Assembly: GCF_018977255.1 (NCBI RefSeq)
Contig: NW_024704742.1
Location: 39,744,001-39,808,000, forward strand
Origin: Callorhinchus milii
Taxonomy: Eukaryota
Reading direction: 5' to 3'
DNA length: 64,000 nt
In this document: one piece after another, positions 4,406-60,238 of the stretch
How positions within the stretch are numbered: the first letter of the stretch is position 1
Layout: every line of letters begins with the position of its first letter
Notes under the pieces: generated by a model
The model's input: the letters and a program-made list of their open reading frames with translations, nothing else
The model's database searches: none
Told to the model about the DNA's origin: nothing
Translations under genes and position numbers: made by a program

Positions 4406-7109
4406 CAGAAAATTCCACTGAGTCTGTAATATTGTTTTGTCTTAAAATTTAAGATCATACAGAACTAAGGAAATTCCTCAATTCAGCCTTCATTTGTAAA
4501 CTGTTTTTTTGCAGTTCAAGTACTTTAAAACAAACTGGCTTCCAGGTGGTCCTATAGGTTGAGACTGTTTTTTCCTTACAGAGTAAAAGTGGTTGGAAAT
4601 ATGAAATTGAGCATGCTATGTCTAATTTAGTAGAGCATGAAAAATTGCAGTGATTCATGAAAAGCAGTGTAGTGGTACATCATGTTGGAGCATCAATGCA
4701 TTGAGTCACATACGAGTTGCTGGCATACTGTTCCGTATGCCCAGGTTTGCTTCTTTGCTGGTTTGAGTGGCAGCACTGTGGAGACACATTGAACAGATGC
4801 CAGGTGCTCACAGAGAGCACATGAAAGTAACCAAAATATTTCTTCCTAACAGCTGGGTTACAGAAACATTGTAGCAAATTTGATAGATCAGGGAAAGATA
4901 GCTGGGAGAAAAGGATGTTTTTTTTCCCTTATAAAAGAGGCTTAGGGGGCAGAATGATCAGAAAGCTCAATTTCATATTCGAATTGTTCCATGCAGGGTA
5001 TAGCATTTTCTTAGCTTCAGTAAGCTCAGTCGCAAGAACACCCTGACACATTCAATTCATTGCAAAGAAGGATTAAAGCTGATGTATCTGCTTTCATTTT
5101 GTGTGTGTGTGTGGGGGGGGTGGGGGCACAACTTGTATTCCTGTTACTCCTGTAGAAAGGGCGGTAGGTTAATGAGTTACATTATTTTATCGTAATGAGA
5201 TTTTCCATTGACAATTAAAAGCCTCTGGGGGTCTTTTTTGTGGTGTTCATACTATTGCCTACTTTGAGAACCGAGTATAATACTGTAAATTTCCTGATGA
5301 GAATCCAGTCGTCTCATGATTGTCTTTGACTAAACGGAAAAGATCACTAAAATCAGCCACCCAAACATTAGTGAAACCTGAAGGTTAATTACAACAGGGC
5401 ACAAAATAATTTGCTCTTTGTAATACTGGTTATCTCATTGCACAGCTGTTCCTTTCACTGTGCAGCATCCCATTAATCACACCTAAGTTTGCACCATATC
5501 ATATGATTCATCATTCGTTTTTTCTCCCCACAGCTACTTCCATCCTCTCTGATTCAGATAAACTACTAATTTAACATGGCAGCATCCAACCTTGAATATC
5601 ATATCAGCTCACATGGGATTTGAGGGTCAATGAAATATGCACAGAACCTGTTCTTTTAGAAAGTGAAGTGATATTTCATCAGACTCCTCGAGATATGGAA
5701 TATGTCAAGCATGGATCCTTCTGTTCATACCGGGAATGACAGGACAGGATGACAAATGAGGCCCTTCAATTTCAGAACTGCACACGCAGTTCCAGTGCTG
5801 AGAGTTGTAGTTGATTGACACATAGTTACAGGTCCTCGGATCAGGGGTACACATTACAGACTCCGTTTAAATCATAAGCCATTTATTCTGTTATAATATG
5901 CTTCGAATTATTTTTGTTGGAACAGTTTATCTTTGTTGCACAGGCTCACAACACATTCATCTGTAAGCTGGTGGAACTTCATCAGTGGTTATAATATAAA
6001 AACACAACACAATGAACATTTCCCATCTGCTATAGCTCTTAGGATAAGTACACTTGTATTTGTAATAGTTAACATAGATTTTAAAAACGGAATAATTTAC
6101 ATTTTATTTTGTTAGTTCATATGGTTAAGGAAATATGCAAGCCATAAATCCAAGCTGATTTAAATTTAGTCAATTGAGATGTGCAAGGAAAAAAAGCTTA
6201 GCTTGTTTCTATCTTGAATATGCAATTTTTCCCACTATAGAATTTGCCACAGTCAGAGCCAAATTGCAAATTTAATGCCAACTTGTGCTGAATTATAGAC
6301 AGCTTGGTTCCATGAAGGCACACCCAATACAATCAGCTTGAAATCACCCAGAATTAATTAGGGTGTTTTAGTCAATGTAGAAATAACGTTTTCAATCCAT
6401 CAATACAGTCTGGATTTAAACCAGGTACTGGAAGTGGAAGGGCAAAGTGTAAACTCTAGTTTATTAACAGGACAGGTTTTAAAGTAAGTGTTTTGAATAA
6501 GTTGATTTTTTTGTTGTTTGTGTTTTTTAAACTTTTATTTAATTTATGTTTTTTTTCACACAATAATCCAGAGACAATGCAGAAATAGTGCCTCTTTTCA
6601 TTATAGTTCAAGGTCCAGATGGCCAGAAATCAATTTCTGGAGAGGTTTTGCCTGTTCTCACCTCCTTCTTAAGGCTTTCTGATAGAGCAACATATTGGGG
6701 AGAAAAAGGCGATGTTTCCTAACAGATTCAATGTGACAATTATGAAATGTTATGAAATGTTGTCTTTCCCACTTCATTGCTTTATTTCCTATGTGGATTT
6801 GAGTTCTAAGTATCCCAATTTTATTTTGTCTATATGAACTATATCCATTATATAGGTCATATAATATATAATCCTTGCATTTGATATGACAATAATCATT
6901 TTTGCATTTGATATATTTTCACATGAGGAGGACATATCAAAGTGCTTCTTAAGATTTACTGTGAAGTTTAGTGACTTTGGAGACATGAGATCCACTTCCA
7001 CATTTATATATATGGCACCCAATTCTATCTCTCTGCCTCTACCCTCGATTCCAGGACAGTGATTGTTCTAACCAATTGCTTGTCAAACATTGCTGATGCA
7101 TTAATGATG

Positions 7110-7955
7110 AACTGGATGAGTTTTATCTTTATTTGGGTTAATTTCAGCAAGTCAGAGGCTCCCCTGTTTGGTTTCCGACAGTGCCGTCTCACCTCAGATG
7201 CTGACAACATCAACCTGTACTGGTTCTCATTCCATCTCATCAAAACAATATAAAATCTGAGGATCCTGGTTGACAACAGCAATTTATATAGCCCTCAGAA
7301 TGCTTAATCCCCAACTCTCTTTCAAACCCTATTCCAGGACTCTCACTCACTCAGTTTTCCCTCACCTCACCTCAACAACAACAGCAGCAACTCCATGGGC
7401 TGCTGTGACCCTCATGTTTTTATCAAGTGCAAGCTTGATTATTTCAATGTCCTGCTTGTTGGATTCACCAGCTTCTCCCTACATAAGCTGCAGACTATCC
7501 GGAACTTCTGTCCTCTCCCACACGAATCTTCACGAGCCTATCGCCCCCATCCTCATTTGGCTCCTCCTGCACCCATCCTCCGGTGGACTGAATCCTCTTC
7601 CTCAAGTTCAAAGGAAGTTGTCTATGTGAACTATATCATTATATAGATCATATAATATACAATCCTTCTTGGCCTCATTCCACTGTGACCTCTTGCAACC
7701 CTATCACTTTGGCCTACTTCATGTTCTCCAACCAACCATTGGTGAGTGAGCTTTCAGCCATTCTTCCCCAGCCCCACTCAATCCCGGGGTTCTTTCACCT
7801 CACACATTCTCCCCCCACCTTTAAGGCCTTTCTTAAGACCTTTACACCCCCTCCGCACCCTCCTCAGCTGCCCTTGTCACCTTGGGCTCTAAGTCAGTTG
7901 TGCGAAGTGCTTTGAGATGTCCTCCTAGTGTGAAAGCAGTAAATTGTTGTTGATT
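7110..7955 (+). mobile_element. Degenerate L2 LINE 3' fragment
   Basis: Remnants FIKCKLDYFNVLLVG..SLHKLQTIRN and PPTFKAFLKT; L2 tail gtgctttgagatgtcctcc..tgaaag..ttgttgttg. Confidence 0.85.
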
Positions 7956-9470: not shown

Positions 9471-10360
9471 TCTTGAGTTTTGCATGAAAGGCGCAATGAT
9501 TATGGCTGGCAATAGTCATAATTTTTGAGAACCTGCACTTTGTTAGTTTGGCAACCTCCAATGAAATTACAGTCCTAAACAGAATATTCATGACTGGAGT
9601 TGCACAAGATTTGTGAATGTTCAATCCTGTTGGTAATCAAACGTGTGTCAGATCAACCCGATAGAAACCCTTTCTGATAGGACCTGAATTATAGTCTCTG
9701 TGCTATAGAACAGTGTTCCCATGTGTAGCCATGACACAATTCCGTTTATCAGCAAGATTTATGATATGTGAATCTTGTGTGACTCCAGTTAGGCATGTTG
9801 TGTTCTTGACCCCATTGTTCCAAATACATTTCAGGCAATTTGTGTGTGAGAGGAATCTGAGCATGAAGTAGCAATCATTAACATACATTAGCATCTGATT
9901 TCCACATTTGGCAGAGATTTATATCTGTTTCCTGATTTGTGTAGCTTTTTGTAAATCTTCATGCATTAATGAAAAATTTATAAAAANTACTCAAATCTTG
10001 CCTAGGCACAAATTATTCATAATATCACCTTTCAGGATAAAATGAATAAATCATCTGTTTCACTGTAGAGACTTTCTGGTATCAGCAACATATAGCATTA
10101 AGTGTCTAACATTACAAATCACAATAATTCTTTTGTGACAGCTATTGCTACGAGCTGTAGCAGGTTTGGGGGATATAAGGGAAAAAGTACAAATATCCAG
10201 ACACTATTACATTGATAACACAACTTTTTATTTGACAATTATTGTTGGGATGATCACTCAAACTGGCACGATGACAGTTGTTGTAATCCAGTAGCTGCAG
10301 TCTGGGCTCGTGACTACATGCTTACACATCCAGGGTTTTGTTATCCATATGTAGAACTCT

Positions 10361-11418: not shown

Positions 11419-13924
11419 CGGGGGGCGGCGGCAGGACAGCACGGGGAGGAGCCTGGGCCAACCTACCCAGGCACTTAAGCTCGACGCGGCAGAGAGTGCA
11501 GCTATAGGGGGTGTGGGGCTGAGAGGGAACAGGTGGGGGCGGAGCGGTGGAACCGCTGACGTCATAGTTTAGTTTTCAGGAGTGTGCGCATGCAAAAAAC
11601 AAACAAAAAAAAAAAAACCTCTGTGCCCCCCACCCCCAGCGCTCAGAGCCCACCATGGTCCTGTTGGGTTGGCTGCCCCAGCCCCAACCTACGGGATAAT
11701 GCCTTAACGGAAACCTGGCTCACCCCAGGTGACACCTTCCCCCTCACGGAGGCCACACCACCCGGCTATACCTCCCACCACATCCCTCGCCCCAACCGCC
11801 GCGGCGGTGGTGTAGCCCTTATCTCAAGGACACCACTTGCCCTATCCCCCTACTCCTCTGGCTCTTTCCCCTCTTTTGAGCACCTCACCCTCTCCCACCC
11901 CTTCTTCCTCTCGCTCAAAATCCTCCTCCTCTACCGGCCCCCTAAAACCTCTCCCACCTTCATCTCCGATATTTCGACACTCCTTACATCTCTCTGCCTC
12001 TGCTCTGATCGCCTCATCATCCTGGGCGACTTTAACCTGCACTTCACCCCCTCCTGCTCCATCTCCTCAGACTTCTCTTCCCTGCTCTCCTCGCTCAACC
12101 TCTCCCTCCACATCAACTTCCCCACTCACAGTCACGGCCACCCACTCGACTTGGTGATCACCCGGGGCCTCAGTGTCTCGGATGTCACTATTACCGACAA
12201 GGCCGTCTCCGACCACCACTTCATCTCCTTCACCACCTCCACCCCCCTCCCCACCTCCACCAGACCCACCACCATCTTCTACCGCCCCTGGAAGAAGTTA
12301 CCCCCACAATCCCTAACCGCTGCCTTGGAGTCCTCTGAACTCCTCTCCCTCTGGCCTTCAACCCTCACTGACCCCTCTTCTCCTCTCACCCTCCTCCACA
12401 ACACCCTCTCCTCCACACTCGATACTCTTGCCCCCATCACCTCCCGTACTGTCTCCTACTCTCGCTCCTCCCCCTGGTTCACCACCTACCCCCGCTCACT
12501 GAAATGCCAGGTGCGGGCCGCTGAACGCACCTGCATCAAATCTGGCCTAACGGTCCACAGACAAATCTGGCTGGACCTCCTCAAAATCTACCGCTCCACT
12601 CTAGCCTCGGCCAAGTCGTCCTTCTACTCCAGGATAATCCTGGAGGCGAAGAACAACCCCAGGCTACTGTTTTCTACCACATCCCGACTCCTCCGTCCCC
12701 CCGCCACCCCGCGCAGGTCATCTCCTCCAACCTTCACTGCGAGGAGATGCTGGATTTCCTTGAATCCAAAATCAAGGGAATTCGCTCTGCGGTCACTTCC
12801 CCTCCAACATCCACCCACCCCCACCCCTCCCTCACACACGCCGACTCCTACCCATCCTCCCCTACACACTTTCGTACCCGTTTCCCCACCCTCTGTCACC
12901 AAACTCATCCTATCCCTGAAACCCACCACCTGCTCCCTTGACCCCATCCCCACTCCACTCCTTATCTCCCAGCTCCACCTCCTTGCCCCACATATCACAG
13001 ACATCGTCAACCTGTCCCTCTCCTCTGGCTACGTTCCCATTCCCTTAAAAACTGCCATCATCACTCCCACTTTGAAAAAACCCTCCCTTGATGCGTCGCA
13101 GCTATCAAGCTACCGGCCCATCTCCAACCTCCCCTTTCTGTCCAAGGTCCTGGAACGAGTTGTCGCCTCCCAGCTGCGCTCTTTCCTCTCCAACCATTCA
13201 CTATTCGAACCCCTTCAGTTGGGTTTCCGTGCTGCCCATAGCACAGAAACTGCCCTGGTCAAGGTCACCAATGACATCCTGACCATCTGTGACCAGGGCT
13301 TTATCACCTCAAGGCTGGACTATGGGAACTCTCTCCTCGCCGGCCTTCCCAGCACCTCCCTCCACAAGCTGCAGGTCATTCAGATCTCTGCAGCTCGTGT
13401 ACTGTCCCGCACCAGGCTTCGGGACCACATCACTCCCACCCTCGCTCGCCTCCACTGGCTTCCCATCCCCCAGAGGATCGATTTCAAGATCCTCATCCTC
13501 ACCTACAAGGCCACTCACGGCCTTGCTCCCTCCTACCTCTCTGACCTACTATCCCCCTACCTACCTGCCCGTACCCTCCGTTCCTCTCGCTCCGGTCTGC
13601 TTCACATCCCCCGCCCCAACCGCCCTACCATCGGTGGCCGGGCCTTCAGCCTCTCAGCCCCTAGGCTTTGGAACTCTATCCCCCAGTGCCTTCGTCTTGC
13701 TTCCACCCTTTCCTCCTTCAAGGCCGATCTCAAGACCTTTCTCTTTGACTGTGCCTTCGGCTCCCCTCTTGACTCTCTACCCCCTCCTCGCTCCCTCCCT
13801 TCCCTCCCCTCACCCTGACCATTTCTCCCCTGCTCAGGTCCTGACCCAACTGTACAGTGCCTTGGGATGTCCTCCTGATGTGAAAGGCGCTCTATAAATG
13901 GAATCTTGTTGTTGTTGTTGTTGT
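11419..13924 (+). mobile_element. L2-clade LINE derivative: APE endonuclease plus ORF2 C-terminus, RT core deleted; flanked by tgtcca direct repeats
   Basis: ORF 11584-13818 has APE motifs (ALTETWL, RRGGGVAL, LLYRPP, ILGDFNLH, GHPLDLV, SDH), YRPISNLPFLSKVLE and HSTETALVKVTND, then jumps to FITSRLDYGNSLL; (ttg)n tail; tgtcca at 11413-11418 and 13925-13930. Confidence 0.95.
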
Positions 13925-14649
13925 TGTCCAAGATGCTATCCTCTCTGAAGACACTATGTAAATGAAAGTAATGGCAATTTTGCTATTTTTGTTACAAAAA
14001 AGGTTGAATGAAATGAACTGAGTCCATTTGAGACATTTTGAATATAAAAAGTTTTGTTTTCAAGAACATGTCAAGCTGACCACAATTTAAAACATTTTTT
14101 AAAGTTGCTTTCAGACGACTGCAATCAGACAAATTTTGCCAAATAAAGCGAAATATGTTTATTTGCAGATGAAGCAATTCATTAATGGCAAATGGATATG
14201 ATGCATTGAGGATTAATGCTACAAACTGGTCTGGGATCTGCTGATAAATCATTTCCTAATTCTCTACATATTGCATTTGAAGTTTGGGGTTTGATTTCAT
14301 TTTATAATTTGAGACGGTTTGACCAAAACTGTCAAAAATTTGCTTTGAAGCTCTGTTAACCAAAGCCAGAGATCAAAGAGAATTGGACATATTTAAGTGG
14401 GAGCTTTCAGTCCACTCATTCCTTGATTGGACTGAAGAATATCTGTAATGGACATTTATTCCCCGGAAAGGAAACGAGTGCAGTTATATGAAGAGTTTTC
14501 ATCAGATAGCTTTCAAAGACATGTCACTGCTAATAGTTACTAGGTTAACATTTGTATAGTTTTATTTTCAGCTTCTATTCTTTAATTTTTGTCTCTGTTC
14601 TATAAACAGAAATGTCCCAAAGTAGCCATGGAGTGACTAATTCATTTTA

Positions 14650-18398: not shown

Positions 18399-20590
18399 AG
18401 ACAATCTTGGAGGCCAAGGACAACCCCAGGCTCCTCTTCTCCATCACCATTTGGCTCATCCATTTACCCTCTCATGCCTCGCCCATCCTCATCTCCAATG
18501 GCAACTGTGAGGCGATGCTGGACTTCCTTGATTCCAAAGATGAGGAGATTCGCTCAGCTGCCTCTGCCCTTCTGTCTTCTATGCACTTCCCGTCGACCCC
18601 TCTCACCCCAGCCCCTACCCATCCCTCCCTCCACACCTTCGAACCTGTCTCCCACTCCTCTCTCATCACCACTATAACCCACATAAATCTGACCACCTGC
18701 TCCCTCGAACCCATCTCTAGTCCTCCGTTTACCTCCCAGCTCCACCTCCTTGCCCCTGAGCTCACAGACATCATAAACCTCTACCTGTCCACTAGTAGCA
18801 TTACCACCCCTTTAAAAATGGCTGACATCACTCCTATGCTTAAAAACCCTCCCTGGACGCATTCCTGTTCTCAAACTACCACCTCATCTCCAACCTCTCC
18901 AAGGTCCTGGAACGAGTCATTGCCTACCAGCTTTGCTGGTAGTCCTGTAGCTCAGTGATTAGAGTACTCGCCTTGCAAGTGAGAGTCCTGGGTCCAATTC
19001 CAGGCAGGACAAAACCTTGGGCAAGTTTCCTTACTCCCACACTTAATAATAAACCCTCCAAAATGAAACAATAATAAATTGGTCATTTTCAATCTATGAC
19101 TATTTGTGAGACGCTGCTGTGTGCAATTGGCTGCCGCGTTTCGCCCACAAATATATGGTCAATTCACTTTACGGTCTATTCTGCGAAGCGCTTTGAGACT
19201 CCAAGAAGACGTGAAAAGCACTATATCAAATGCAAGAATTATTATTATTACTATTATTATTTGCTTCTTCTTTTTCCACCATTCCCTTCACGAACCCCTC
19301 CAATCGGGTTTCCGTGATGCCGACAGCACAGAAACAGCACTGGTCAAAGTGATAAATGACATTCCGACCAGGGCTCCCTCTGCCTCCTCGTCCTCCTTGA
19401 CCTCTCTGCTGCCTTTGACACCATTGACCACTCTATCCTCATCCACCACCTCTCCTCTCAACTTAACCTTTATGGTTCTGTCCTTGACTGGTTCAGATCG
19501 TACCTCTCACACCGCCTTCACTTCATCTCCACAAATGGTTTCTTCTCTAGCCCCACACCATCTAGTTTGGCATTCCTCAGGTCTCTGTCCTTGGTCCCCT
19601 CTTCTTCTACAACTATATACTCCTTCTTGGTGACATCATCCGCAGACATGGGGTCAACTTCCACATGTATGTGGATGACACCCAACTGTACCTCTCTGCC
19701 TCCACCTTTGACTCCAGGGCCACTGCTGTCCTGACAGAATGACTGTCAGACATCAAGTCCTGGATGAGAGCTAACTTTCTTTAGTTGAACATCAATAAAG
19801 ACTGAGGCCCTCCTGATTGGAGTGTGCATCTATGGATGGTGATGTTGTCAGTGCCTTCACACCTCAGGTAGCACCTTACTAGGCCAGTCTTGAACCCTTT
19901 GACCCTCAACTATTCTTTCTATCCCACTTCCGTGCCATGACCCGCTCTGCCTTCCCCGAACCTCTGCAACATCACCCGGCTCCACCACTGTCTCACACCA
20001 CAAGCCACTGAAACCCTCATACACACATTCATAACATCAAGGCTTGACTATGCAAACTCTGTGCTTGTCGGTCTCCCCAACTCTTCCCTCCATAGGCTGC
20101 AGATCATCCAGAACTCTGCAGCCCTTGTCCTCTCCCACACCAGGCTCTGTGACCCTATCACCCCCATCCTCACCCGACTCCACAGGCTTCCCATCACACA
20201 GATGATACAATTCAAGATCCTGATCCTCACCTTCAAAGCCCTGCATTGTTTTGCTGCCCCCTACCTCTGAGACCTCCCAACCCCCTACCATCCTGCTCGA
20301 TCCCTCTGCTCAGGGGGCTCCAGCCTGCTTCACGTCGCCCGCCTCACCCACCTCACCATTGGTGGACTGGCCTTCTGCCACTCTGCCTCTACCCTCTGGA
20401 ACTCCATCCCATGGTCCCTCCTCCTTGCCCCTCCCTTGCCTCCGTCAAGAACCTCCTCTTCAACCGTGCTTTTGATCACCCTGCTTCCCCACCCTCACCA
20501 ATCCCAATCCTGTGTCCGAAACACTGACTGTCCAGGGCCTTGGGAAGTCCTCCCAATGTGAAAGTTTTTTTGTTTTTGTTTTTTTGTTTT
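18398..20590 (+). mobile_element. 5'-truncated, decayed L2 LINE with nested SINE
   Basis: ILEAKDNPRLLFS, STETALVKVIND, ctcttgacctctctgctgcctttgacacc-type RT motif (LDLSAAFDT), GIPQ region, atgtatgtggatgac (YVDD), LHRLPITQMIQFKIL; 3' tail. Confidence 0.95.
18938..19259 (+). mobile_element. Full-length tRNA(Ala-like)-derived SINE with tttgct direct repeats
   Basis: A box tagctcagtgattagag, anticodon arm ctcgc-cttgcaa-gtgag, B box gggtccaattcc, (tta)n tail; tttgct at 18932-18937 and 19260-19265. Confidence 0.92.
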
Positions 20591-20593
20591 TTG

Positions 20594-20869
20594 CAGGCTC
20601 CGGCCTGCTCCACATCCCCCGACCCACCCACCCACCATTGGCGGGAAAGCTTTCAGCCACTCTTCCCCCAACCTCTGAAATTCCATCCCCCAATCACTCC
20701 GCCTCACCCCCTCCTTAGCCTCCTTCAAGTCCCGCCTCAAGACCCTCCTCTTCGACCATGCCCCAGCTCCGGTCTGAAATGCCGTACTGTCCAGTGCCTT
20801 GGGACGTCCTCCTGACGTGAAAGGCACTATACAAATGTAATCTTGTTGTTGTTTGTTGTTGTTGTTGTT
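20594..20869 (+). mobile_element. Second L2 3' fragment in tandem
   Basis: AGSGLLHIPRPTHPP..SFKSRLKTLLF; tail gtgccttgggacgtcctcctgacgtgaaaggcac..(ttg)n. Confidence 0.9.
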
Positions 20870-28637: not shown

Positions 28638-29539
28638 ATGAGAGCTAACTTTCTTCAGTTGAACGTCAACAAGACCGAGGCCCTCTTGATTGGCTCCTGT
28701 CAGCGCCTCCTCACCTCAAGCGCTGACAGCCTCACCATCCATGGATACACACTCCACCTTACTAAGTCAGTCCGGAACCTTGGTGTCTTGTTTGACCTTC
28801 AACTATTCTTTCTACTCCACATCAGCCATGACCAGCACTGCCTTCCCCCACCTCCCCAACATCGCCCAGCCTAGATGTTATCAATGCGTGTATGAGTGTT
28901 TCAGCGGCCTGTCTCACACCGCAGGCTGCCGAAACACTCTTACATGTATTCATAACATCGAGATTTGACTTTGTGAACTCTTTGCTTGTTTGCCTCCCCA
29001 ACAATTCCCTCCACAGGCAGGCTGCAGATCATCCAGAACTCTACAGCCCGTGTCCTCTCCCGCACCAGGCTCCGTGACCCTATCAACTCCATCCTCGCCC
29101 GACTCCACTGTCTTCCCATCACCCAGAGGATACAGTTCATGATCACCTCACCTTTAAAGCCTTACATGGCCTCACAGCCCCCTACCTCTGCAACCTCCTA
29201 ACCCCCTACTACTCCCACCGCTTGGCGGGCTCCGCCCTGCTTTACATCCCCTGCCTCACCCACCCCACCATTGGCAGGCAGGTCTTATATTCCCCTAGCC
29301 TCTGGAACTCCATCCCGCAGTCCCTCCACCTCACCCGCTCTCTTGCCTCCTTCAAGACCCATCTCAAGACCCTGCTCTTCGACCGTGCTTTTGATCACAC
29401 TGCTTCCCCCGTTGCCCTCCACCCTCCCAATCCTAACCCTCAGCTTGGGTCTGAAACATTGACTGTCCAGCACCTTCGGATATCCTCCCGACCTGAAAGG
29501 CGCTATATAAATGTAATTGTGTTGGTGGTGGTGTTGTTG
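28638..29539 (+). mobile_element. L2 LINE 3' fragment
   Basis: MRANFLQLNVNKTEALLIG..VRNLGVLFD, FITSRFDFVNSLL, LHCLPITQRIQF, FKTHLKTLLF; tail. Confidence 0.95.
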
Positions 29540-30734: not shown

Positions 30735-33374
30735 GAAAATCAGGATGTAGAGTCAGTATGGGTGGAGGGAAGAAACAACAAGGGGCAGAAAACACTAGTG
30801 GGAGTAGTTTATAGACCCCCAAACAGCAGTTACAGTATTGGCTAGGGTATTAATCAGGAAATTAGAGGAGCATGTAGCAAGGGTAATACACTAAGTGGGT
30901 GATTTCAATCTTCATATAGATTGGGAAAACCAAATTGGCAAAAATAAATTAGAGGATGAGTTTATAGAATGCATTAGAGATAGTTTTCTAGAACAATATG
31001 CTGAGGAACCAACCAGGAAACAGGCTATCCTAGATCTTGTATTGTGTAATGAAGCAGAGCTAATCAGCAATCAGGCAGTTAAAGTTCCTCTAGAGCAGAA
31101 TGACCATAATATGATGGAATTTAATATTAAGTTAGAGAGTGATATAGTTGAATCCGAAGCAAGGGCTTTAAGTTTAAATAAAACCAACTTTGCAGGTATG
31201 AGAGAAGATTTGGCTAAAATAGACTGGGAAATTAGATTAAAAAATAGGACGGTAGACCAGCAATGGCAAACATTTAAAGATATAATACATAATTCCCAGC
31301 GATCACATATTCCCTTGAAAACTAAAAATACCACGGGAAAGTGTTCATCCTGGGCTAACTGGAGAAGTTAGGGAAAGTATAAAATTGAAAGAAGAGGTCT
31401 ATAATATTGCCAAAAAGAGTGGTAAACCTGAGGATTGGGAGGGCTTTAGAGAACAGCAAAGGAAAACCAAGAAACTGATTAAGAGGGAGAAAATGGAATA
31501 TTAGGGTAAACTAGCTAGGAACATAAAGACAGATTGTAAGAATTTTTACAAGTACATAAAGAGGAAGAGACTATCAAAAGTGAATGTGGGTCCATTGCAG
31601 GCAGGGACAGGAGAAATTATAATGGGGAATAAAGAAATGGCAGAGTCATTAAACAAATATTTTGTTTCTGTCTTCACGTTAGAGGACACTGAAAACTTAC
31701 CGAAAATAGAGGGGAACCTAGAGGCTATGTTAATGAGGAACTTAAAAGAAATGAACATCAGTAAAGCAATAGTACTAGAGAAATTGATAGATTAAAAATC
31801 GATAAATCCCCTGGACCTGACGGCCTGCATCCAAGGGTTTTAAATGAGGTGGCTGCAGAGATAGTGGATGCTTTGCTTTTGATCTTCCAAAATTCCCCCA
31901 ATTCTGGACAGGTTCCTATTGATTGGAAGGTCGCAAATGTAATGCCGCTATTTAAGAAGAGTGGGAGACAAAAAATGGAGAAATATAGACGAGTTAGTCT
32001 GACATTGGTGGTAAGGAAAATTCTAGCGTCCTTAATTAGGTATGTCGTCGTGGGGTATTTAGAAAATCATAACATGGTTAGGCAGAGTCAACATGGCTTT
32101 ACGAAAGGAAAATCATGTTTAACAAATCTTTTAGAGTTTTTTGAAGATGCAACTAGCAGGTTAGATAGGGGGGAACCAGTAGATGTGGTGTCTTTGGATT
32201 TCCAGAAGGTATTTGATAAGGTGCCACATAAAAGGCTGTTGTATAAGATTAGAGCCCATGGAATCAAAGGTAATATATTAGCATGGATCGGAGAGTGGCT
32301 AACAGGAACAAAACAGAGAGTAGGGATAAATGGATCCTTCTCAGATTGGCAGGATGTGACTAGTGGAGTGCCACAAGGATCAATGCTTGGGCCTCAATTA
32401 TTTACAGTCTATATCAATGATTTAGATGAGGAAATAGAACTTAACATATCTAAATTTGCGGACGATACAAAGATAGGTGGGAGAGTAAGCTGTGAGGATG
32501 ACACATGAAGAACGCAAAGGAAAATAGACAGGCGAGGTGGGTGGGCAGATGGAGTAAAACATGGGGAAGTGTGAAGTTATTCACCTAGGTAGTAAAAATA
32601 GAAAAGCGGATTACTTTCTAGAGTGGGAGAAACTAGGTAGTGTTAGTGTTCAGAGGGATTTGGATGTCCTTTTACACTAGTCACAAAAAGTTAGTATGCA
32701 TGTACAGCAAGCAACTAGGAAGGCTGATGCCATGTTGCTGTATATTGCAAAAGGGTTAGACTACAAGAGTAGGGAAGTCTTGCTGCAGTTGTATAAGGCC
32801 TTGGTGAGACCTCACCTGGAATATTGTGTGCAGTTTTGGTCTCCTTATTTAAGAAAGGACATCCTCGCCTTAGTGGGGGTGCAGCATAGATTCACTAGGT
32901 TGGTTCCTGGGATAAGGGAGTTGACCTATGAGGAGAGGTTGAGTAAACTAGGCCTTTATTTTCTACAATATAGAAGAATTAGGGATGATTTTATAGAAAC
33001 CTATAAGATTGTTAAGGGTCTTGATAGGGCAGATGCCATGAGACTATTTCCCCTGGTTGGAGAATCTAAAACTAGGGATCATAGTCTCAAGATTAAGGGT
33101 CAGCCTTTTTGAACTGAGTTGAGGAAACATTTCTTCACTCAGAGGGTAGTGAACTTCTGGAATTCTCTACCCCAGAAGGCTGTGGATGCTCAGTCCTTGA
33201 ACATATTCAAGACTGAAGTTAATAGATTTCTAAAGGATAAAGGGATTAAGGGATATGGGGATAGGGCGGGTAAATGGAATTAGGTTAGAAGATCAGCCAT
33301 GATCTTATTAAATGGCAGGGCAGGCTCGAGGGGCTGAATGGCCTACTCCTGCTCCCACGTCTTATGGTCTTATG
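30735..33374 (+). mobile_element. 5'-truncated CR1-clade LINE with disrupted APE-RT ORF2
   Basis: [82 protein letters not shown]; 3' UTR ending (tcttatgg)2; several stops and frameshifts. Confidence 0.97.
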
Positions 33375-50061: not shown

Positions 50062-53000
50062 TATAAGTCCCCCATGAACAACCACGAGAGTCAATTCTTG
50101 ATTTATCTGGGGAGGAGTGGGGAGGGTGTGGTCAAATAGTCTTCCTTTAACGTCCGTCAAATTCCAGACACACCGAAGCGTGGCATAAATCGGGTGACTT
50201 GCACGGGTGCGAAGCAGGAGAGGAAGCAGTGAGGGTGAGGGGTCCGAAGTTTTTGTTTTCCAGGCAACAGAGACGTGTTTTCAAATTCTCCCGCCTGGAC
50301 CAACGCCGAAACCACGTTCGTGACATCACATTCGTATACCATTTTTTTTTCAAACCCTCCGCAGACTGAGTACTTTTCATTGTTTCTATTTCCGTGCACC
50401 ATTTCAAACTCAGGTCAATTATAGTTTCATTTTTATTCATCTACTTCCCTTTCTGTCCTCTCTCACTTCTCTCTTTCTCGCTCTCTACAAATTCTCTCTG
50501 AATTACTTACCAAGTCGAGCAACATGTAAATAACATTATGAGTGCCCTCCTACCTCTCTCCCCTCTGCACTGTCTCCTCCAGCCTCCCACACCCGCCATG
50601 CCTACGGGTTGATGATGCCCATTGATCACTCTGCTCCCAGTCTCGGCTTGTGTGTTTGGCTGCCGCCCCTGACCCAGCCATCCCCTCCACAAATGCCCCC
50701 ATTCCTATTCCCCAACCTTCATTACTCCCACTCAGTCCTTCTCTTCAATTGCCCTCCCCATCTTTTCTTCCTCCTGGACCATCTGTTCCAGCTCAGGCAT
50801 CCTCTGTCGGGCTTACCACGGAACTCAGCGATGGTTGTCCCAAAGCAGCCAGCCCAACTGACCTACTCCACTCACCTACTCCTCAAGGCCCGCCTCCCTT
50901 ATCTCCGACAGGTAAACTCCCCTTCCCTCATCCACATCCTTCCCAACTATCCCCCCGCGTACTCAACAGTCGTTCTCCCTCACAATCTACAACCATCTCC
51001 CAAACCCTGCCCCACCTGCGCCCCCACTAGCATTGGCCTCCAAAATGTCCACTCCCTCTCTACTAATGCACAACTTCATCCTGGACAAGAAATTAGATAT
51101 CCTCGGGCTCACGGAAACCTGGCTAAACCTCTGGAGACCCCATCCCCCTCATCGAAGCCTCTTCCCTGGTTACAATTCTCAATACACACCCCGCCCCACC
51201 CCTCTCATCTCCCAAACCTCCCTTGGTCTAACACCCTATTTCTCTCACTGTTTCCCCTCCATTAAGCACCTCACCCTCTACCATCCCTCCTCTCACTCCT
51301 TCAAAATTCTCCTAGTTTACTGCACCTCCCCTCCCCCCACCTCCTGGCTCCTTCCTCGCATTGATGTCATCTCACCCCGTCTCTCTGCAGAAAACGCCTG
51401 CTCAAAAAGGGGGGCAAATTCCCCTGCCTAATCTCCTTGGACCTCCTCCATACCCTCTCTCAAGCATACTCAATCCTCATTGCAGATGCCAAGCGCTCTG
51501 AGACGCCGTCCAGCGTGGAGGGCGCTATATAAATCCAAGTTGTTTTTGTTTTTGTTTTTGTTTTGTTGATAGATAACATCCGCCTGGCTGTGTCCTGTAC
51601 CTCCAATGCCTCCTTGATCATCCTTTCCTCCTATCACGGCTCCTATTAAGGACTCCACCCTACACTCCTTTGGCGCCATCTCTCCGGCCTCCCTTTCCTC
51701 CACCATCACCAAGACCTACTGCCTTGAACCACTGAAGGAATCAACCAGACCCTCTAACTGAGGCTCTGTCCCACTCCCTCTCAAAATTGCTATCATTACT
51801 CCACTTCTTAAAAAAACCTACCCTGAATCCCACCAACCTCAGACCCATCTCGAACCTGTCCTTCCTGGCCAAAGTTTTGGAATGCTCATTGGAATCAACT
51901 TCGCTTATACCTCTCCTTCCACTCCCTACTCGAACCCCTCCCATCTGCTTTTTGCCCTGCCCACAGTACAGAGACAGCACTTGTCAGGTAACAAATAACG
52001 TCCTCTCTCTCTATGACTAGGGCAGTGACACAATCGATCCTGCCATCCTTCTCCACCGCCTCCACTTCATCATCCACCTTAGTCGGACTGCACTCTCTTT
52101 GTTTGTGTCCTACTTAACAAACCGCCAACAATACATCTTTGTTTTTTCCTCCCACCTACGCCCAGTCACTTGTGGGGTACCCCAAGGCTCCATCCTTGGC
52201 CCCCTTCTTTTCCTTATCTACATGCTCCCCCTTGGCGATGTCATCTGCAGACCTGGGGTAAGTTCCACCTGTATGCAGATGACACCCAAATCTACTTCTC
52301 CTCCAGCTGCAACTCCTAGTCCACTGATGTCCTATCAGCTTCTTTGACAGACATCAAAGCCTGGATGAGCGCAAATTTCCTGCAGCTGAATGTCGGCAAG
52401 ACAGAAACCATACTCTTTGGCTCCCATCAACGTCTTCTCCTCAAACTCCTCGGGCTCTCCCTCAGACTCTATGAACCTGTGCGCAACTTAGGCATAAGCT
52501 TCAAACCCCAGCTTTCCTTTCTGCCCCATATCCTTTCCCTGACTAGGACCACTTTTTTCCACCTTCGTCACATTGCCCACCTCTGTCCATACCTTACAAC
52601 CAAAGCAGCCAAAACTCTTGTCCACGCCTTCGTCACTTCCCAGTTGGACTATTCCAATGCCCTCCTCGCAGGTCTCCCTAACTCCACTGTACACAATATT
52701 CAACTAATTCAAAACTCTGCCACCCGGATACTCACCCACACAAAACTCTGTACCCGCATCACACCAGTCCTTGCCAGGCTCCACTGGCTCCCAATTACTG
52801 AACGGATCGATTTCAAGATGCTCTCACTCCTTTCAAATCCCTTCATGCCCTTGCACCTCACTACCTATTCGACTTGCTTACCCCCCCATGCCACTACCGC
52901 TGCCTCTAGTTGGCTGGCTCTGGCCTCCTGCTTGTCCCTTGTTCCCTCCACTCCACCATTGGGCTGTGCCTTCACCTACTATGCCCCGAAACTCTGGAAC

Positions 53001-53188
53001 TCTCCCTCAATCCCTCCGCCTTGCCCCATCCCTCACCACTTTCAAATCCCACCTAACCACCTTCCTTTTTGATCATGCAGAGTCATCTATCACCTCACTC
53101 TCCCCCTGACTCAGTGTCAGACTCTGCCACTGTCAACCAGGACACTATCCCGCGTGCAGGGCACTATATAAATGCAAGTTGTTGTTGT
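50062..53188 (+). mobile_element. Long decayed L2 LINE block with CpG-rich 5' region, acataa direct repeats and an L2 tail nested at ~51485-51567
   Basis: [52 protein letters not shown], tatgcagatgac (YADD), LQLNVGKTE, LHWLPITERIDFK; tail; acataa at 50056-50061 and 53189-53194. Confidence 0.88.
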
Positions 53189-53284
53189 ACATAAAGGTTT
53201 CAGGTGGCAAACTCATACATTCATGAGATTGATGAGATAGCTTAACAACAGTGCCAAAATATCCAACATTGTCAACCATTTTCA

Positions 53285-53683
53285 GCAGTACACATCCCAC
53301 ACAACATCTATGAGATGACCAATATTCTGGAGGATTGTTGGCCAGGATACCGAGAGAACTTCTCATCCATATGCAATAGTTTCCAATGATATCCAACAGT
53401 GCCCATGCCTATAAACCCCCATGTGATGACCAATAAATTACGATGATTGTTGTTCAGGACACCTAGAGAAATTCTTCTTTAATAGTGACAAGTGATCATT
53501 TATTTTATCAGAAGAACAGCCACATGTACCTTGGTTTAATGCCTCATCTGAAGGATACCACCTTGGATAATGCAGTGCTCTCCCAGTACTGGATTCGAAT
53601 GTCAAACTTGTGAATTTTAAGTCCTGAGCTTGAACCCACAACCTTCTTTTCCAGAGGCAAGCTATAAACTGAGCCAGGCTGGC
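53285..53683 (-). mobile_element. Old Deu-SINE
   Basis: ggattgttggccaggatacc; ttggtttaatgcctcatctgaagg; cttgaacccacaacctt..aactgagcca. Confidence 0.7.
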
Positions 53684-53830
53684 AATTATGCTATCATTAA
53701 TATTTTACACTAGGAAATATGATGAATGTTACGAACAAGAATCAATAATTCAATTATATTCTTGTTTTTGGGCATGAAGAATATTTCCTGAAAGAAATAT
53801 TAATTTTAAGCTTCACTGAGATTACTTATA

Positions 53831-54068
53831 TGAATTCCTTTGGTGGAGACTCATGCGGAGTATAAACACCAGCAGACTAGTTGGGCTGAAGTATTTTGGA
53901 TTAGTTGCTGAACAATCTATATAAATCTATGCGTAAAGGTGTCAGGTGGCAAACTCATACCGATTGATGAGATAACTTAACAGTAGTGGCGAAATATCCA
54001 ACATTGTCAAGCCATGTTCTGCAGTGCTCATGCCATAAAACAGCCATGAGATGATTGACATAAATATT
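53831..54068 (+). repeat. Uninterrupted paralogue of 49840-50061 joined to 53195-53326
   Basis: Shared cctttggtggaga..ttgggYtgaagtatt..tctatRtaaatc and aaaggtKtcaggtggcaaactcatac..aatatccaacattgtcaa. Confidence 0.85.
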
Positions 54069-54249
54069 GTGACTTAAATCATGAGAGACCTCTAGACGTG
54101 TTCTGTTTATATGCTCAGCAGTTAGATAGAGAAGGGGAAAAGAAACAAATTCATAACAAAAAAAATTGACAAATTTAAATTTACCGATAAATTTTGACAA
54201 AATACATGCAACTTTTAGATGTTAAACCAAGGTTCCATTTTCCTTTTCC

Positions 54250-54431
54250 ACTGGAACTCCATCCTACATTCCCTTCGCCTCGCTCCCTCCCTTGTCTCCT
54301 TCAAAGCCCACCTTAAGATCATCCTCTTTGACCGTGCCTTCGGCCACCCTCTCTCCCCTCCACCTTTCCTGATCCCAACCCCCAACCCCCACCTGCTCCC
54401 CCCACCCAGCTCGGGTCACAATTCCTGACTG
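54250..54431 (+). mobile_element. L2 3' fragment
   Basis: WNSILHSLRLAPSLVSFKAHLKIILFDRAFG. Confidence 0.9.
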
Positions 54432-55598: not shown

Positions 55599-55802
55599 GT
55601 ATCTCTCAAGAAGGGTGTGTGACCTCTGTCACTACCTTATTGCAGAATACCATGCAAACCTTTTTGGGGGCTTCATTAAAGTATTTTTTAATAAATGTTT
55701 TAATATAGCTCATCAACAATAGGATAGCCCCCTAAAAAATATATCTACGATGCTCCCCCATGCAAGACCTTTCCGATGAGGTATAAATCATTTCTCTACG
55801 TC

Positions 55803-56500
55803 AACAACAGCAACAAAATTAGATTTATAGAGCGCCTTTCACATTGGGAGGACGTCCCAAGGCACTGGACAATCAAGGGTCAGGACCCGAGCATGGGGGA
55901 GAGGTGGGGTAGGGGTGAGGGAAGGCAGAGAGGTGGGAGGGCGACTGAAGGCACGATCGAAGAGATGGATCTTGAGACCAGCCTTGAAGGAGGCAAGGGA
56001 GGAAGCGAGGCGAAGGGACTGAGGGATGGATTTCCAGAGTGTGGGGGCAGAAAGCCCAGCCACTGATGGTAGAGCGGGTTGGGCAGGAGACATGGAGCAG
56101 GCCGGAGCCCGCTGAATGGAGGGAGCGGGCAGGTTGATAAGGAGTCAGCAGGTCAGAGAGGTAGGAGGGGGCAAGGCCATAGATGGCCTTGAAAGTGAGG
56201 ACAAGGATCTTGAATTCTATCCTCTGGGGGATGGGGATGATAGGATCATGGAGTCTGGTGCAGGAGAGGACACGAGCTGCACAGTTCTGGATGATCTGCA
56301 GCTTGTGGAGGGAAGAGTTAGGAAGGCCGACAAGCATGCATAGTCAAGCCTAGATGTAATAAATGCATGGATGAGGGAAGAAGCAGTGGCAGAGCTGCGT
56401 GATGTTGTGGAGGTGGGGAAGGCAGAGTGTGTCACGGCATGGATGTGAGTTAGAAAGGACAGTTGAGTTCAAGCAAGACGCCAAGGTTCTGGACGCGCTC
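55803..56500 (-). mobile_element. L2 3' fragment
   Basis: LIHAFITSRLDY, LHKLQIIQNCAARVL, RIEFKILVLTFKA; (caa)n tail. Confidence 0.95.
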
Positions 56501-56569
56501 AGTGAGATGGAGCAGCCAATTGCATGAAGCAGTGTCCAACAAACCCTCAACTAATGAAAATGGTACCAA

Positions 56570-57766: not shown

Positions 57767-58069
57767 TCTGGCTCTTTATGTGGGGCATGATACTAATCAT
57801 TGAGATAACAGTGAAATAAAAACAAAATAAAGCCAATCTACTAAACCCAAAGTACAGGAACTCTTTAATAAAGTCAGCAAATGGCCTGAGAAGTTTTGAC
57901 CACTTCAACTGGTTGATCACCTCAGTGAGTTTGAATGATTGTACTATATTTGCCTTCAAGAAGCAGTCACTATATTTTACAGTCAAATTCTGTGAAGTGC
58001 TTTGAGACTTCCTCTTGACATTAAAGGTACCAGAGCAAAATCAAAAGGAAGCATTATTATAATATAATA

Positions 58070-58564
58070 CAACACAAAATTACATTTGTAAAGCGCCCTT
58101 CACGTTGGGAGGATGTCCCAAGGCGCTGAACAGTGAGGGTCATTAGGACCGGAGCGGGTGGGGGTTGGGATCAGGGAGGGTGGAGGACAGAGAGGGTGGC
58201 CGAAGATATGGTCGAAGAGGAGGGTCTTAAGACATGCCTTGAAGAAGGCAAGGGAGGATGTGAGGTGAAGGAATTTGGGATGGAATTCCAGATGGTGGGT
58301 CAGGGAAGCTGAAGACCCGACCGCCGATGGTGGAGTAGGCTGGGCGGGGGACATAGAGCAGCCTGCTGAGCGGAGGGAGTGGACAGGTTGATAAGGGGTT
58401 AGCAGGTTGGAGAGGTGGGAAGGGGCAAGGCCTTGGAGGGCTTTGAAGGTGAGGATGAGGATTTTGAACACAATCCTTTGGGGGATGGGGAGCCAGTGCA
58501 GCCAGGCGAGGGTGGGTGTGATGGGGTCAAGGAGCCTGATGCGGGAGAGGACACAAGCTGCAGA
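58070..58564 (-). mobile_element. L2 3' portion (continues at 59921-60238)
   Basis: FKILILTFKALQGLAPSHLSNLL; tail near 58070. Confidence 0.92.
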
Positions 58565-59519: not shown

Positions 59520-59922
59520 AAGAGTGGGCACCTTCACGCTGCAAAAGAAAAGATTGAGAGGTGACATGATTGCTGTCTTTAAGATTCTAAATGGGCGAGA
59601 CAATATAGATCATGACAGGCTGTTTCATCTTGTCCAGAATAGTAAAACCAGAGGACACGCCTGTGAATGATGGGGGGTAAACTCAGAATGAATGTACAAA
59701 AACACTGTTTCAGTGAGAGTATAGTGAACCTGTGGAGCAGGCTCCCTAGTCAGATGATTGAAGCAGGAAGTGTTGATTCTTTCAAACATAGTTAGGAAAT
59801 GACTTTATGGGATGCTACATAGGTAGTTTGGAACATATGTGCATGCGACCGCCAGGAAGGTGGAAGGCGAACTAGATAGACCTTGGCCTTTTTTCGTCTA
59901 ACATTTCTTATGTTCTTATGTT
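59520..59922 (+). mobile_element. CR1 3' end with (ttcttatg)n tail
   Basis: FTLQKKRLRGDMIAVFKILNG..SKTRGH; tail ttcttatgttcttatgtt. Confidence 0.9.
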
Positions 59923-60238
59923 GTGGAGGGAAGAGTTGGGGAGGTCGACAAGCAGGCAGTTGGTACAGTCAAGCCTAGATGTAATAAAGGCCTGTATGAG
60001 GGTTTCAGTGGCTTGAGACAGGGGTGAGACAGTGTCGGAATCGGGCAATATTGTGGAGGTGGGGAAAGGCAGAGCAGGTCATGGCACGGATGTGGGGAAG
60101 AAAGGACAGTTGAGGGTCAAACAAGATGCCAAGGTTTCTGACTGGCTTGGTGAGCTGGAGTGTCAATCCATGGATGCTGATACTTCCAGTGTCTCGGGTG
60201 CGGAGGGAGGCGCTGGCACCAGCCAATCAGAAGAGCCT
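59921..60238 (-). mobile_element. L2 upstream portion matching 58070-58564
   Basis: LTKPVRNLGILFDPQLSFLPHI. Confidence 0.92.

Follow-up and report, generated by a model that had tools for sequence, protein, structure and literature searches.

A doubly deleted copy of an L2-like LINE family in Callorhinchus milii, very probably private to one locus

The subject here is a copy of a long interspersed nuclear element (LINE) that is found within a 64,000-nucleotide stretch of the Callorhinchus milii genome (assembly GCF_018977255.1, contig NW_024704742.1, positions 39,744,001 to 39,808,000 of the forward strand). That entire stretch is referred to as the window, and positions, unless indicated otherwise, are positions within it. 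The copy lies on the plus strand, from 11420 to 13926, and consists of an endonuclease (EN) remnant of the APE type, a reverse transcriptase (RT) stub, and a conserved C-terminal region. Very probably it is a single, dead copy of a high-copy and recently active L2-like LINE family, one from which two internal segments are missing, and which is private, non-functional, and representative of no subfamily. An initial annotation of this DNA had offered two options, i.e., either a non-autonomous, EN-only L2 subfamily that is mobilised in trans or instead a single, non-recurrent deletion joined at a short microhomology. It is the latter that the evidence supports, but with two deletions rather than one.

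'Sister' is used here in a broad sense, that is, to describe other loci of the same family, with 'parent' describing the undeleted sequences that became joined at a junction. The two junctions, at 11703|11704 and at 13300|13301, are described as those of deletion 1 and of deletion 2, respectively. The genome searched was a single eukaryotic assembly of 991 Mb.

A short tandem repeat at the 3' end, rather than poly(A), is a hallmark of the CR1/L2 group. The label 'L2' itself comes from motifs in the initial annotation and is putative as against CR1 or Rex1, with the tandem-repeat tail and the order of domains fitting the CR1/L2 group. Both termini of the parent LINE have been kept, the 5' end lying at the family's usual start and the 3' terminus reading ..AAAGGCGCTCTATAAATGGAATC and then (TTG)7, at 13906-13926. 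Three or more TTG units following the same sequence similarly close 26 of 28 sisters, with unrelated flanks beyond, and the 3' tail thus is intact, as had been claimed. What has been lost is internal. With the full domain set of the family (Pfam), as seen with sisters, the endonuclease match starts at profile position 4 (in two sisters, of 225 positions) and RVT_1 is matched from 2 to 202 of 205 at 127 bits, e.g., as in the sister open reading frame (ORF) of locus L032. In the window copy an Exo_endo_phos match, starting at position 35, and an RVT_1 stub are found together in one long ORF, with the RT incomplete.

Deletion 2 is the one that removes the RT core. The RVT_1 match of the stub is to positions 2-59 only, its score falling under the Pfam cut-off of 29.6 bits, and sister RT residues 126-347 are missing from the element. 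Those residues are present elsewhere in the window, in decayed form, at 19366-20333 and at 51817-52829 (tblastn). Both the absence of the RT core here and its decayed presence in older copies thus are as initially annotated. Measured against sister L003, which has an RT frame uninterrupted by stops over the segment, deletion 2 is 672 bp (224 codons), and the length of the segment is 656-672 bp in the 11 sisters measured. Its two flanks are about 650-670 bp apart in 26 of 29 sister loci, the three exceptions being one 5'-truncated copy and two copies that bear separate deletions. At the junction, the left parent is ..CCAGGGCT|CCCTC.. and the right parent ..CCACGCCT|TTATC.., with the window copy reading ..CCAGGGCT|TTATC.., i.e., with exactly the junction letters that had been quoted. 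These parents have two exact bases (CT) in common, with six of eight positions matching. The long frame continues across the junction as ..VKVTNDILTICDQG|FITSRLDYGNSLL.., that is, as ..TICDQG|FITSRLDYGNSLL...

Deletion 1 had been overlooked, with its junction, at 11701, taken instead to be the start of the derivative. In five comparable sisters there are 502-511 extra bases between ..GGGATAATGCC and TTAACGGAAACCTGG.. (three further sisters were left out, their alignments ending elsewhere). Removed along with these bases are the presumed start codon (MAAA..), an approximately 150-amino-acid pre-EN segment in its entirety, and the opening strand of the endonuclease, i.e., the sister stretch ..LHIGLQNVRSLCNK..VDIM. 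By analogy with L1 and APE1, that strand would carry a catalytic Asn. The parents of deletion 1 have GCC exactly in common, or ATAATG(G)CC given one gap. Lost segments may be placed, for deletion 1, as starting GCCATC, CCATCA, CATCAA or ATCAAC and ending ..CATG, ..ATGG, ..TGGC or ..GGCC, and, for deletion 2, as starting CTCCCT, TCCCTC or CCCTCT and ending ..ACGC, ..CGCC or ..GCCT. No placement of either segment gives GT..AG. An origin by splicing, i.e., as a retrocopy like the spliced integrated retrotransposed elements (SpIREs) considered below, was for this reason rejected, which agrees with the earlier remark that the junction is not an obvious splice junction.

The loss of the presumed start codon is seen in comparison with sisters. 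Among 38 loci scanned, 20 sisters possess both anchors, and in five of the 20 the EN frame, followed upstream, meets no stop before the ATG of MAAA... This ATG sits 83-89 nt 3' of a conserved Kozak ATG, that is, within the part lost in deletion 1, and on this comparison the family's presumed start codon would have been removed from the window copy by that deletion. The stop-to-stop frame that is seen in the window copy, 11560..13818, is 752 codons long, or 742 amino acids as counted from its sole in-frame ATG, at 11590. As that ATG lies in the 5' untranslated region (UTR) and is absent from sisters, the portion of the ORF upstream of 11701 is 5' UTR read-through. The conserved Kozak ATG, at 11655, was considered as the start of the long ORF but was rejected, as it is in a different frame. 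Also dropped was the description of deletion 1 as 'in frame', since what precedes its junction is 5' UTR along with a short upstream ORF (uORF) that is in another frame. The previously annotated 744-amino-acid ORF therefore survives as a long frame but not as a long endonuclease ORF, the EN itself having been truncated by deletion 1.

The ORF also is damaged further along. An out-of-register stretch which is compensated, such that no stop results, had been annotated correctly. In an alignment to 19 fully spanning sisters (six partial rows having been dropped), the window copy has a run of six Cs at 12697-12702 where 14 sisters have seven positions, three have six, and two differ otherwise. It has in addition a 2-base shortfall near 12818-12820, seen in none of the 19 sisters. 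The modal sister frame is continuous through the conserved motif, MLDFLESKIKGIRS, into FVPVSPPSVTK. As these -1 and -2 indels cancel, about 39 codons in the window copy are in the wrong frame, yet without a stop. To judge from the sequence, then, the endonuclease ORF of this copy is not intact, i.e., its N-terminal strand is gone, its presumed start is gone, and its frame is shifted over some 39 codons. The poly-C run at 12697-12702 differs in length among copies (6, 7, 8 or more), and contigs from the four resequenced samples described below carry an extra C at 12696, as a minority of k-mer depth. The run is either hypermutable or an error-prone homopolymer.

For a mobile form, the initial annotation had looked to multiple loci that share the junction of deletion 2 while differing in their flanks. 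One locus only was found. That is, the 26-mer which spans the deletion 2 junction has a single match in the genome, both at zero and at up to three mismatches, and there is a single match as well if a gap of 0-24 nt is allowed. The deletion 1 junction pattern, with a gap of 0-30 nt allowed, also matches once. By contrast, the control, which is the undeleted left parent 26-mer of deletion 2, has 2,064 exact matches. Each junction occurring once versus 2,064 parent sites, the deletions should, by the yardstick of the initial annotation itself, be viewed as private rather than as defining an EN-only subfamily. DNA searches across each junction, with the best 40 of 2,059 candidates (deletion 2) and the best 40 of 2,514 candidates (deletion 1) scored, give the same picture. 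The window copy alone spans, and all other scored matches end at the junction, at 97-100% identity. This is informative in that a copy crossing the junction would have ranked above copies that match on one side only.

Proteins were compared as well. The scoring of 8,000 candidates, all of them predicted proteins of 396-1,260 amino acids, gave 720 matches at E <= 1e-10. Among the 120 of these that were listed, none extends over more than 79% of the ORF, i.e., no protein of the same architecture was found among them. The nearest named protein, among the matches listed, is a 547-amino-acid Callorhinchus milii entry, at 87% identity. The remaining relatives listed are fish EN+RT proteins, at 32-59% identity, that carry generic names only. 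Neither the sister EN ORF nor the window ORF has a match among PDB sequences at E <= 0.01 (phmmer).

An EN-only subfamily would consist of an internally deleted master that, equipped with 5' UTR, endonuclease and 3' tail, is mobilised with RT that full-length relatives supply in trans. The window copy does keep the family's 5' end and its 3' tail, it is young, and full-length partners are plentiful. Short internally deleted elements (SIDEs) are, moreover, internally deleted non-LTR (non-long-terminal-repeat) derivatives which do spread, as described in two papers (PMC3414825, PMC6740152). But with each junction single in the genome against 2,064 undeleted sites, with an EN domain that is truncated rather than intact, as had been supposed, with about 39 ORF codons out of register, and with the same architecture not found among the protein matches listed, such a subfamily is highly improbable. 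Two points nevertheless weigh against the deletions being private. The patterns tolerate at most three mismatches and only the best candidates were scored, such that a copy with the same deletion, if old and strongly diverged, could have gone unseen, and a search of one assembly says nothing of copies that are private to other individuals or other species. A different way for the copy to matter would be as a domesticated host gene, i.e., with its frame kept open by selection for a new, EN-derived protein. Here one can point to 752 open codons, against an expectation from composition of about 15 stops and against 14 and 19 stops in the two remaining forward frames, and to a 672-bp deletion that is a multiple of three. 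Indeed, a length divisible by three along with small indels which cancel would be expected under selection for an open frame too, and that much stands against viewing the frame as a mere remnant. I judge both, however, to be products of chance plus ascertainment.

Against a host gene stands, among other things, the youth of the copy, which by itself accounts for the open frame. In a survey of substitutions, 58 sister loci were projected onto the window copy (at least one pair of these, L011/L046, overlapping the same element), giving 2,224 positions with at least 10 sisters. Across those sites the window copy displays only 14 private substitutions plus 24 minority-shared ones. The retention of CpGs that had been annotated is borne out, with an observed/expected ratio of 0.55 in the element versus 0.20-0.25 in its flanks and 0.37 in two old copies. 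Given 14-38 random substitutions, the frame stays free of stops in 39-76% of simulated trials. The 13 private changes that fall within the ORF are distributed 4:5:4 over codon positions, which, though the numbers are small, would be the even spread of neutral decay. In addition, the conserved motif MLDFLESKIKGIRS is read out of frame, and the copy has lost both the N-terminal, catalytic portion of its EN and the family's presumed start codon. A frame maintained by selection was rejected on the 4:5:4 spread, the frameshifted motif and the simulation, and a domesticated gene is exceedingly improbable. The open frame is instead an inherited remnant, still unbroken because the copy is young and its sequence C/T-rich and poor in stops, with no gene being maintained. 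Furthermore, among thousands of copies some few should have long ORFs by chance, and the window copy was chosen for the length of its frame.

Might the deleted form exist in the assembly only, the real locus being undeleted and collapsed by the assembler? The read data consulted were Logan contigs of four samples, sequenced as runs X15-X18 of a single study, which hold 65-69% of sampled words. In all four of these resequenced samples a contig which starts in the unique 5' flank reaches 35-38 bases into the element, and thus the insertion is both real and shared, though one sample may be the individual that was assembled. Telling against the deletions themselves is that neither 13300|13301 nor 11703|11704 is bridged by any of the listed contigs from the four independent samples, the contigs shattering in the repeat, and that the element is a repeat of more than 2,000 copies. 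The contigs are too fragmented, however, to speak either for or against. Their loose ends at 13299/13300 agree with the parent sequences and necessarily arise from the many full-length copies. There also are two separate, clean junctions, each of them at microhomology, and like deletions are seen in sisters. An artefact of assembly is, for these reasons, quite improbable.

How the deletions came about is a separate issue from their being private. Eight of the 58 sister loci have internal deletions of their own, of 82-1,765 bp and at other positions, with a few shared bases at most junctions. The three sister junctions tested (of 1,765, 971 and 718 bp) each are unique in the genome, and therefore the family keeps making one-off deleted copies. 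In two of these sisters, L040 and L041, the deletions (971 and 1,765 bp) are independent, yet their left-hand breakpoints lie no more than 4 bp apart, at 1521 and 1525 as numbered on the L032 element, or approximately 12540 in the window. The sequence there is ..GTCAAATC(TGG).., and this may be a breakpoint hot spot.

In the window copy each deletion is joined at a short, imperfect microhomology. The mechanism that is slightly favored is that both arose together at insertion, with the RT, during copying, skipping ahead along its RNA template to a short match. At the sister rate, i.e., eight deletions per 127,576 surveyed positions, the probability of two within one element is P = 0.022, and this in combination with the very small number of substitutions leans toward a single event at copying. 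The full length of the copy at both of its ends was counted in favor of such joint origin as well. In PMC6740152, microhomology and RT template jumps are discussed as a possible origin of SIDEs. Alternatively, both deletions could have occurred following integration, whether separately or linked, as microhomology-mediated events, i.e., by replication slippage or by end joining. To this a somewhat less than even chance is given. Single deletions of like style are present in those eight of 58 sisters, which are of similar or greater divergence, such that ordinary decay could suffice; and microhomology, seen at both junctions, is accounted for equally by template jumping and by genomic repair. 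Two losses of more than 500 bp beside only 14-38 substitutions fit post-integration deletion less well. That argument is weak, however, as the P value is post hoc, the copy having been picked for its oddness, and as the sister survey, with its identity floor of 85%, under-counts deletions in the variable 5' region.

Features of the LINE copy, and older related fragments, in the window
Feature	Position	Strand	Remarks
5' UTR	11420..11654	+	homology starts here in 9/9 sister loci, whose flanks are unrelated
Only in-frame ATG of the long frame	11590..11592	+	in 5' UTR; ATG there in 0/9 sisters
Conserved short upstream ORF	11655..11699	+	14 codons plus TAA (11697-11699); ATG in context CCACCATGG; ATG in 9/9 sisters
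Deletion 1 junction	11701..11704	.	about 502-511 bp missing
APE-type endonuclease remnant, N-terminal part missing	11701..12216	+	Pfam Exo_endo_phos, E 3.3e-10, profile 35-225/225
Out-of-register stretch, about 39 codons, including conserved MLDFLESKIKGIRS motif	12697..12820	+	-1 and -2 indels, alignment to 19 sisters
Reverse transcriptase N-terminal stub, to ..ICDQG	13075..13300	+	Pfam RVT_1 2-59/205, 28.2 bits
Deletion 2 junction	13299..13301	.	RT core from SLCLLVLLDLSAAFD to ..AAETLVHA lost
C-terminal part of ORF	13301..13818	+	FITSRLDYGNSLL.. to stop
3' UTR and tail	13819..13926	+	predicted hairpin, then (TTG)7 at 13906-13926
Older L2-like fragments	1219-1714, 6975-7505, 18400-20865, 28641-29539, 51222-54352, 55802-56512, 58069-58564, 59914-60226	both	DNA similarity to young copy

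The ends of the copy (see table) display features of the family more generally. The 5' UTR contains, at 11557-11564, a palindrome, TGACGTCA, that is present as well in eight of nine sisters. It resembles a cAMP response element (CRE) and could belong to an internal promoter. Some copies open with tandem repeats of the first approximately 88 bp of the 5' UTR, a situation that is reminiscent of the promoter monomers of mouse L1. This is seen at 1558-1819 of locus L077 (G000:C1, about 120.05 Mb), with 3.0 copies at 91% matches, and also in another copy, at C63:271159-271397. The family's uORF, as seen in the window copy and in loci L069-L077, encodes MVLLGWLPQP.., with the strong ATG context found in all nine sisters and with its TAA lying inside GGGATAATG. 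Some 30 nt past that TAA, in another frame, comes the presumed main start, MAAA...

Toward the other end, the arms of the 3' UTR hairpin pair, with two CpG-to-TpG changes preserving that pairing as G-U. The hairpin has no special stability, however, at -21 kcal/mol and z = 0.05 versus shuffled sequence. As for a target-site duplication, the only possible one beside both ends is a match of 5-6 bases (GTCCA / TGTCCA), which is too short to count.

The copy is not the only element of its kind in its surroundings. Genomes of this kind are described, in PMC4350176, as dominated by LINEs and short interspersed nuclear elements (SINEs). Older pieces of related, L2-like elements number at least eight in the window, on both strands, and as these display 64-84% DNA identity to the young copy, the 64 kb may be read as a record of several waves of one superfamily. 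An RT fragment from another LINE lineage is found at 31840-32475 (+), with 33% identity to sister RT and with FADDTK replacing YADDTQ. The window contains a single N, at 9987.

The window copy does not correspond in all respects to any one of the systems with which it may be compared. HAL1 (half-L1) is a LINE derivative that retains part of the coding capacity, is found as a multi-copy family, and keeps ORF1; the window form, by contrast, is single. UnaL2 of eel and ZfL2 of zebrafish are stringent L2-clade elements, that is, elements recognised by a 3' stem-loop together with a short tandem-repeat tail. Such 3' recognition would allow mobilisation in trans, but the hairpin of the window copy is no more stable than shuffled sequence and no sign of trans mobilisation is seen.

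Similar in anatomy are the SIDEs, among which PMC3414825 and PMC6740152 describe R2 and R2/R1 SIDEs, Ag-Sponge, TbRIME, and also Persaeus, from the CR1 element Zenon. These, like the window copy, are autonomous LINEs minus an internal part, with the 5' and 3' ends kept. As described there, however, SIDEs are multi-copy and spread in trans, with Persaeus numbering from 245 to 40,029 copies, whereas the window form is single, 2.5 kb long, and has most of an ORF. The window copy thus has the anatomy of a SIDE precursor but is not multi-copy, the feature by which SIDEs are defined. One-off, internally deleted L1 insertions from cultured-cell assays, as reported in PMC3414825, likewise are single, with normal ends, with an internal piece missing, and with no lineage founded. 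The window copy differs from those insertions in being L2-like, in having a (TTG)n tail, in being germline and present in all four sampled individuals, and in having two deletions.

Two further comparisons concern mechanism. Deletions associated with twin priming of L1 (bioRxiv 10.1101/2024.08.27.596794) likewise are internal and made during insertion, but they are short, with a median of 14.5 bp, and occur at 5' inversion breakpoints; in the window copy there is no inversion, and what has been lost is about 500 and 672 bp. With SpIREs of L1 (PMC5860796), a LINE similarly is without an internal segment, one lost from the RNA prior to or during copying. SpIRE deletions are bounded by splice sites, though, and the segments missing from the window copy fit no GT..AG.

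Dead, internally deleted LINE copies are expected where a genome holds thousands of young ones, and such a copy therefore is of little significance in itself. The comparison of a junction with its undeleted parent site, here 1 versus 2,064, nevertheless provides a quick and decisive test for claimed non-autonomous subfamilies. The copy serves also to illustrate that a frame of about 750 codons can persist by chance in C/T-rich, stop-poor, young LINE sequence, despite deletions and frameshifts, and that ORF length alone is no sign of function. For the family, the conserved uORF may bear on the translation of the main ORF. The rate at which unique deletions are seen, 8 of 58, may be used in turn to ask why deleted non-LTR derivatives so rarely become mobile, a question that is raised in PMC6740152 and PMC3414825. 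More tentatively, and rather doubtfully at present, both deletions may stem from one retrotransposition event in which the family's RT jumped forward at matches of 2-8 bases, as it then would do readily and often. If so, then this genome would be a natural collection of 'proto-SIDEs', that is, of promoter- and tail-bearing elements which are continually formed yet almost never take off, and the window copy would be the first step toward a non-autonomous LINE derivative, caught in the act.

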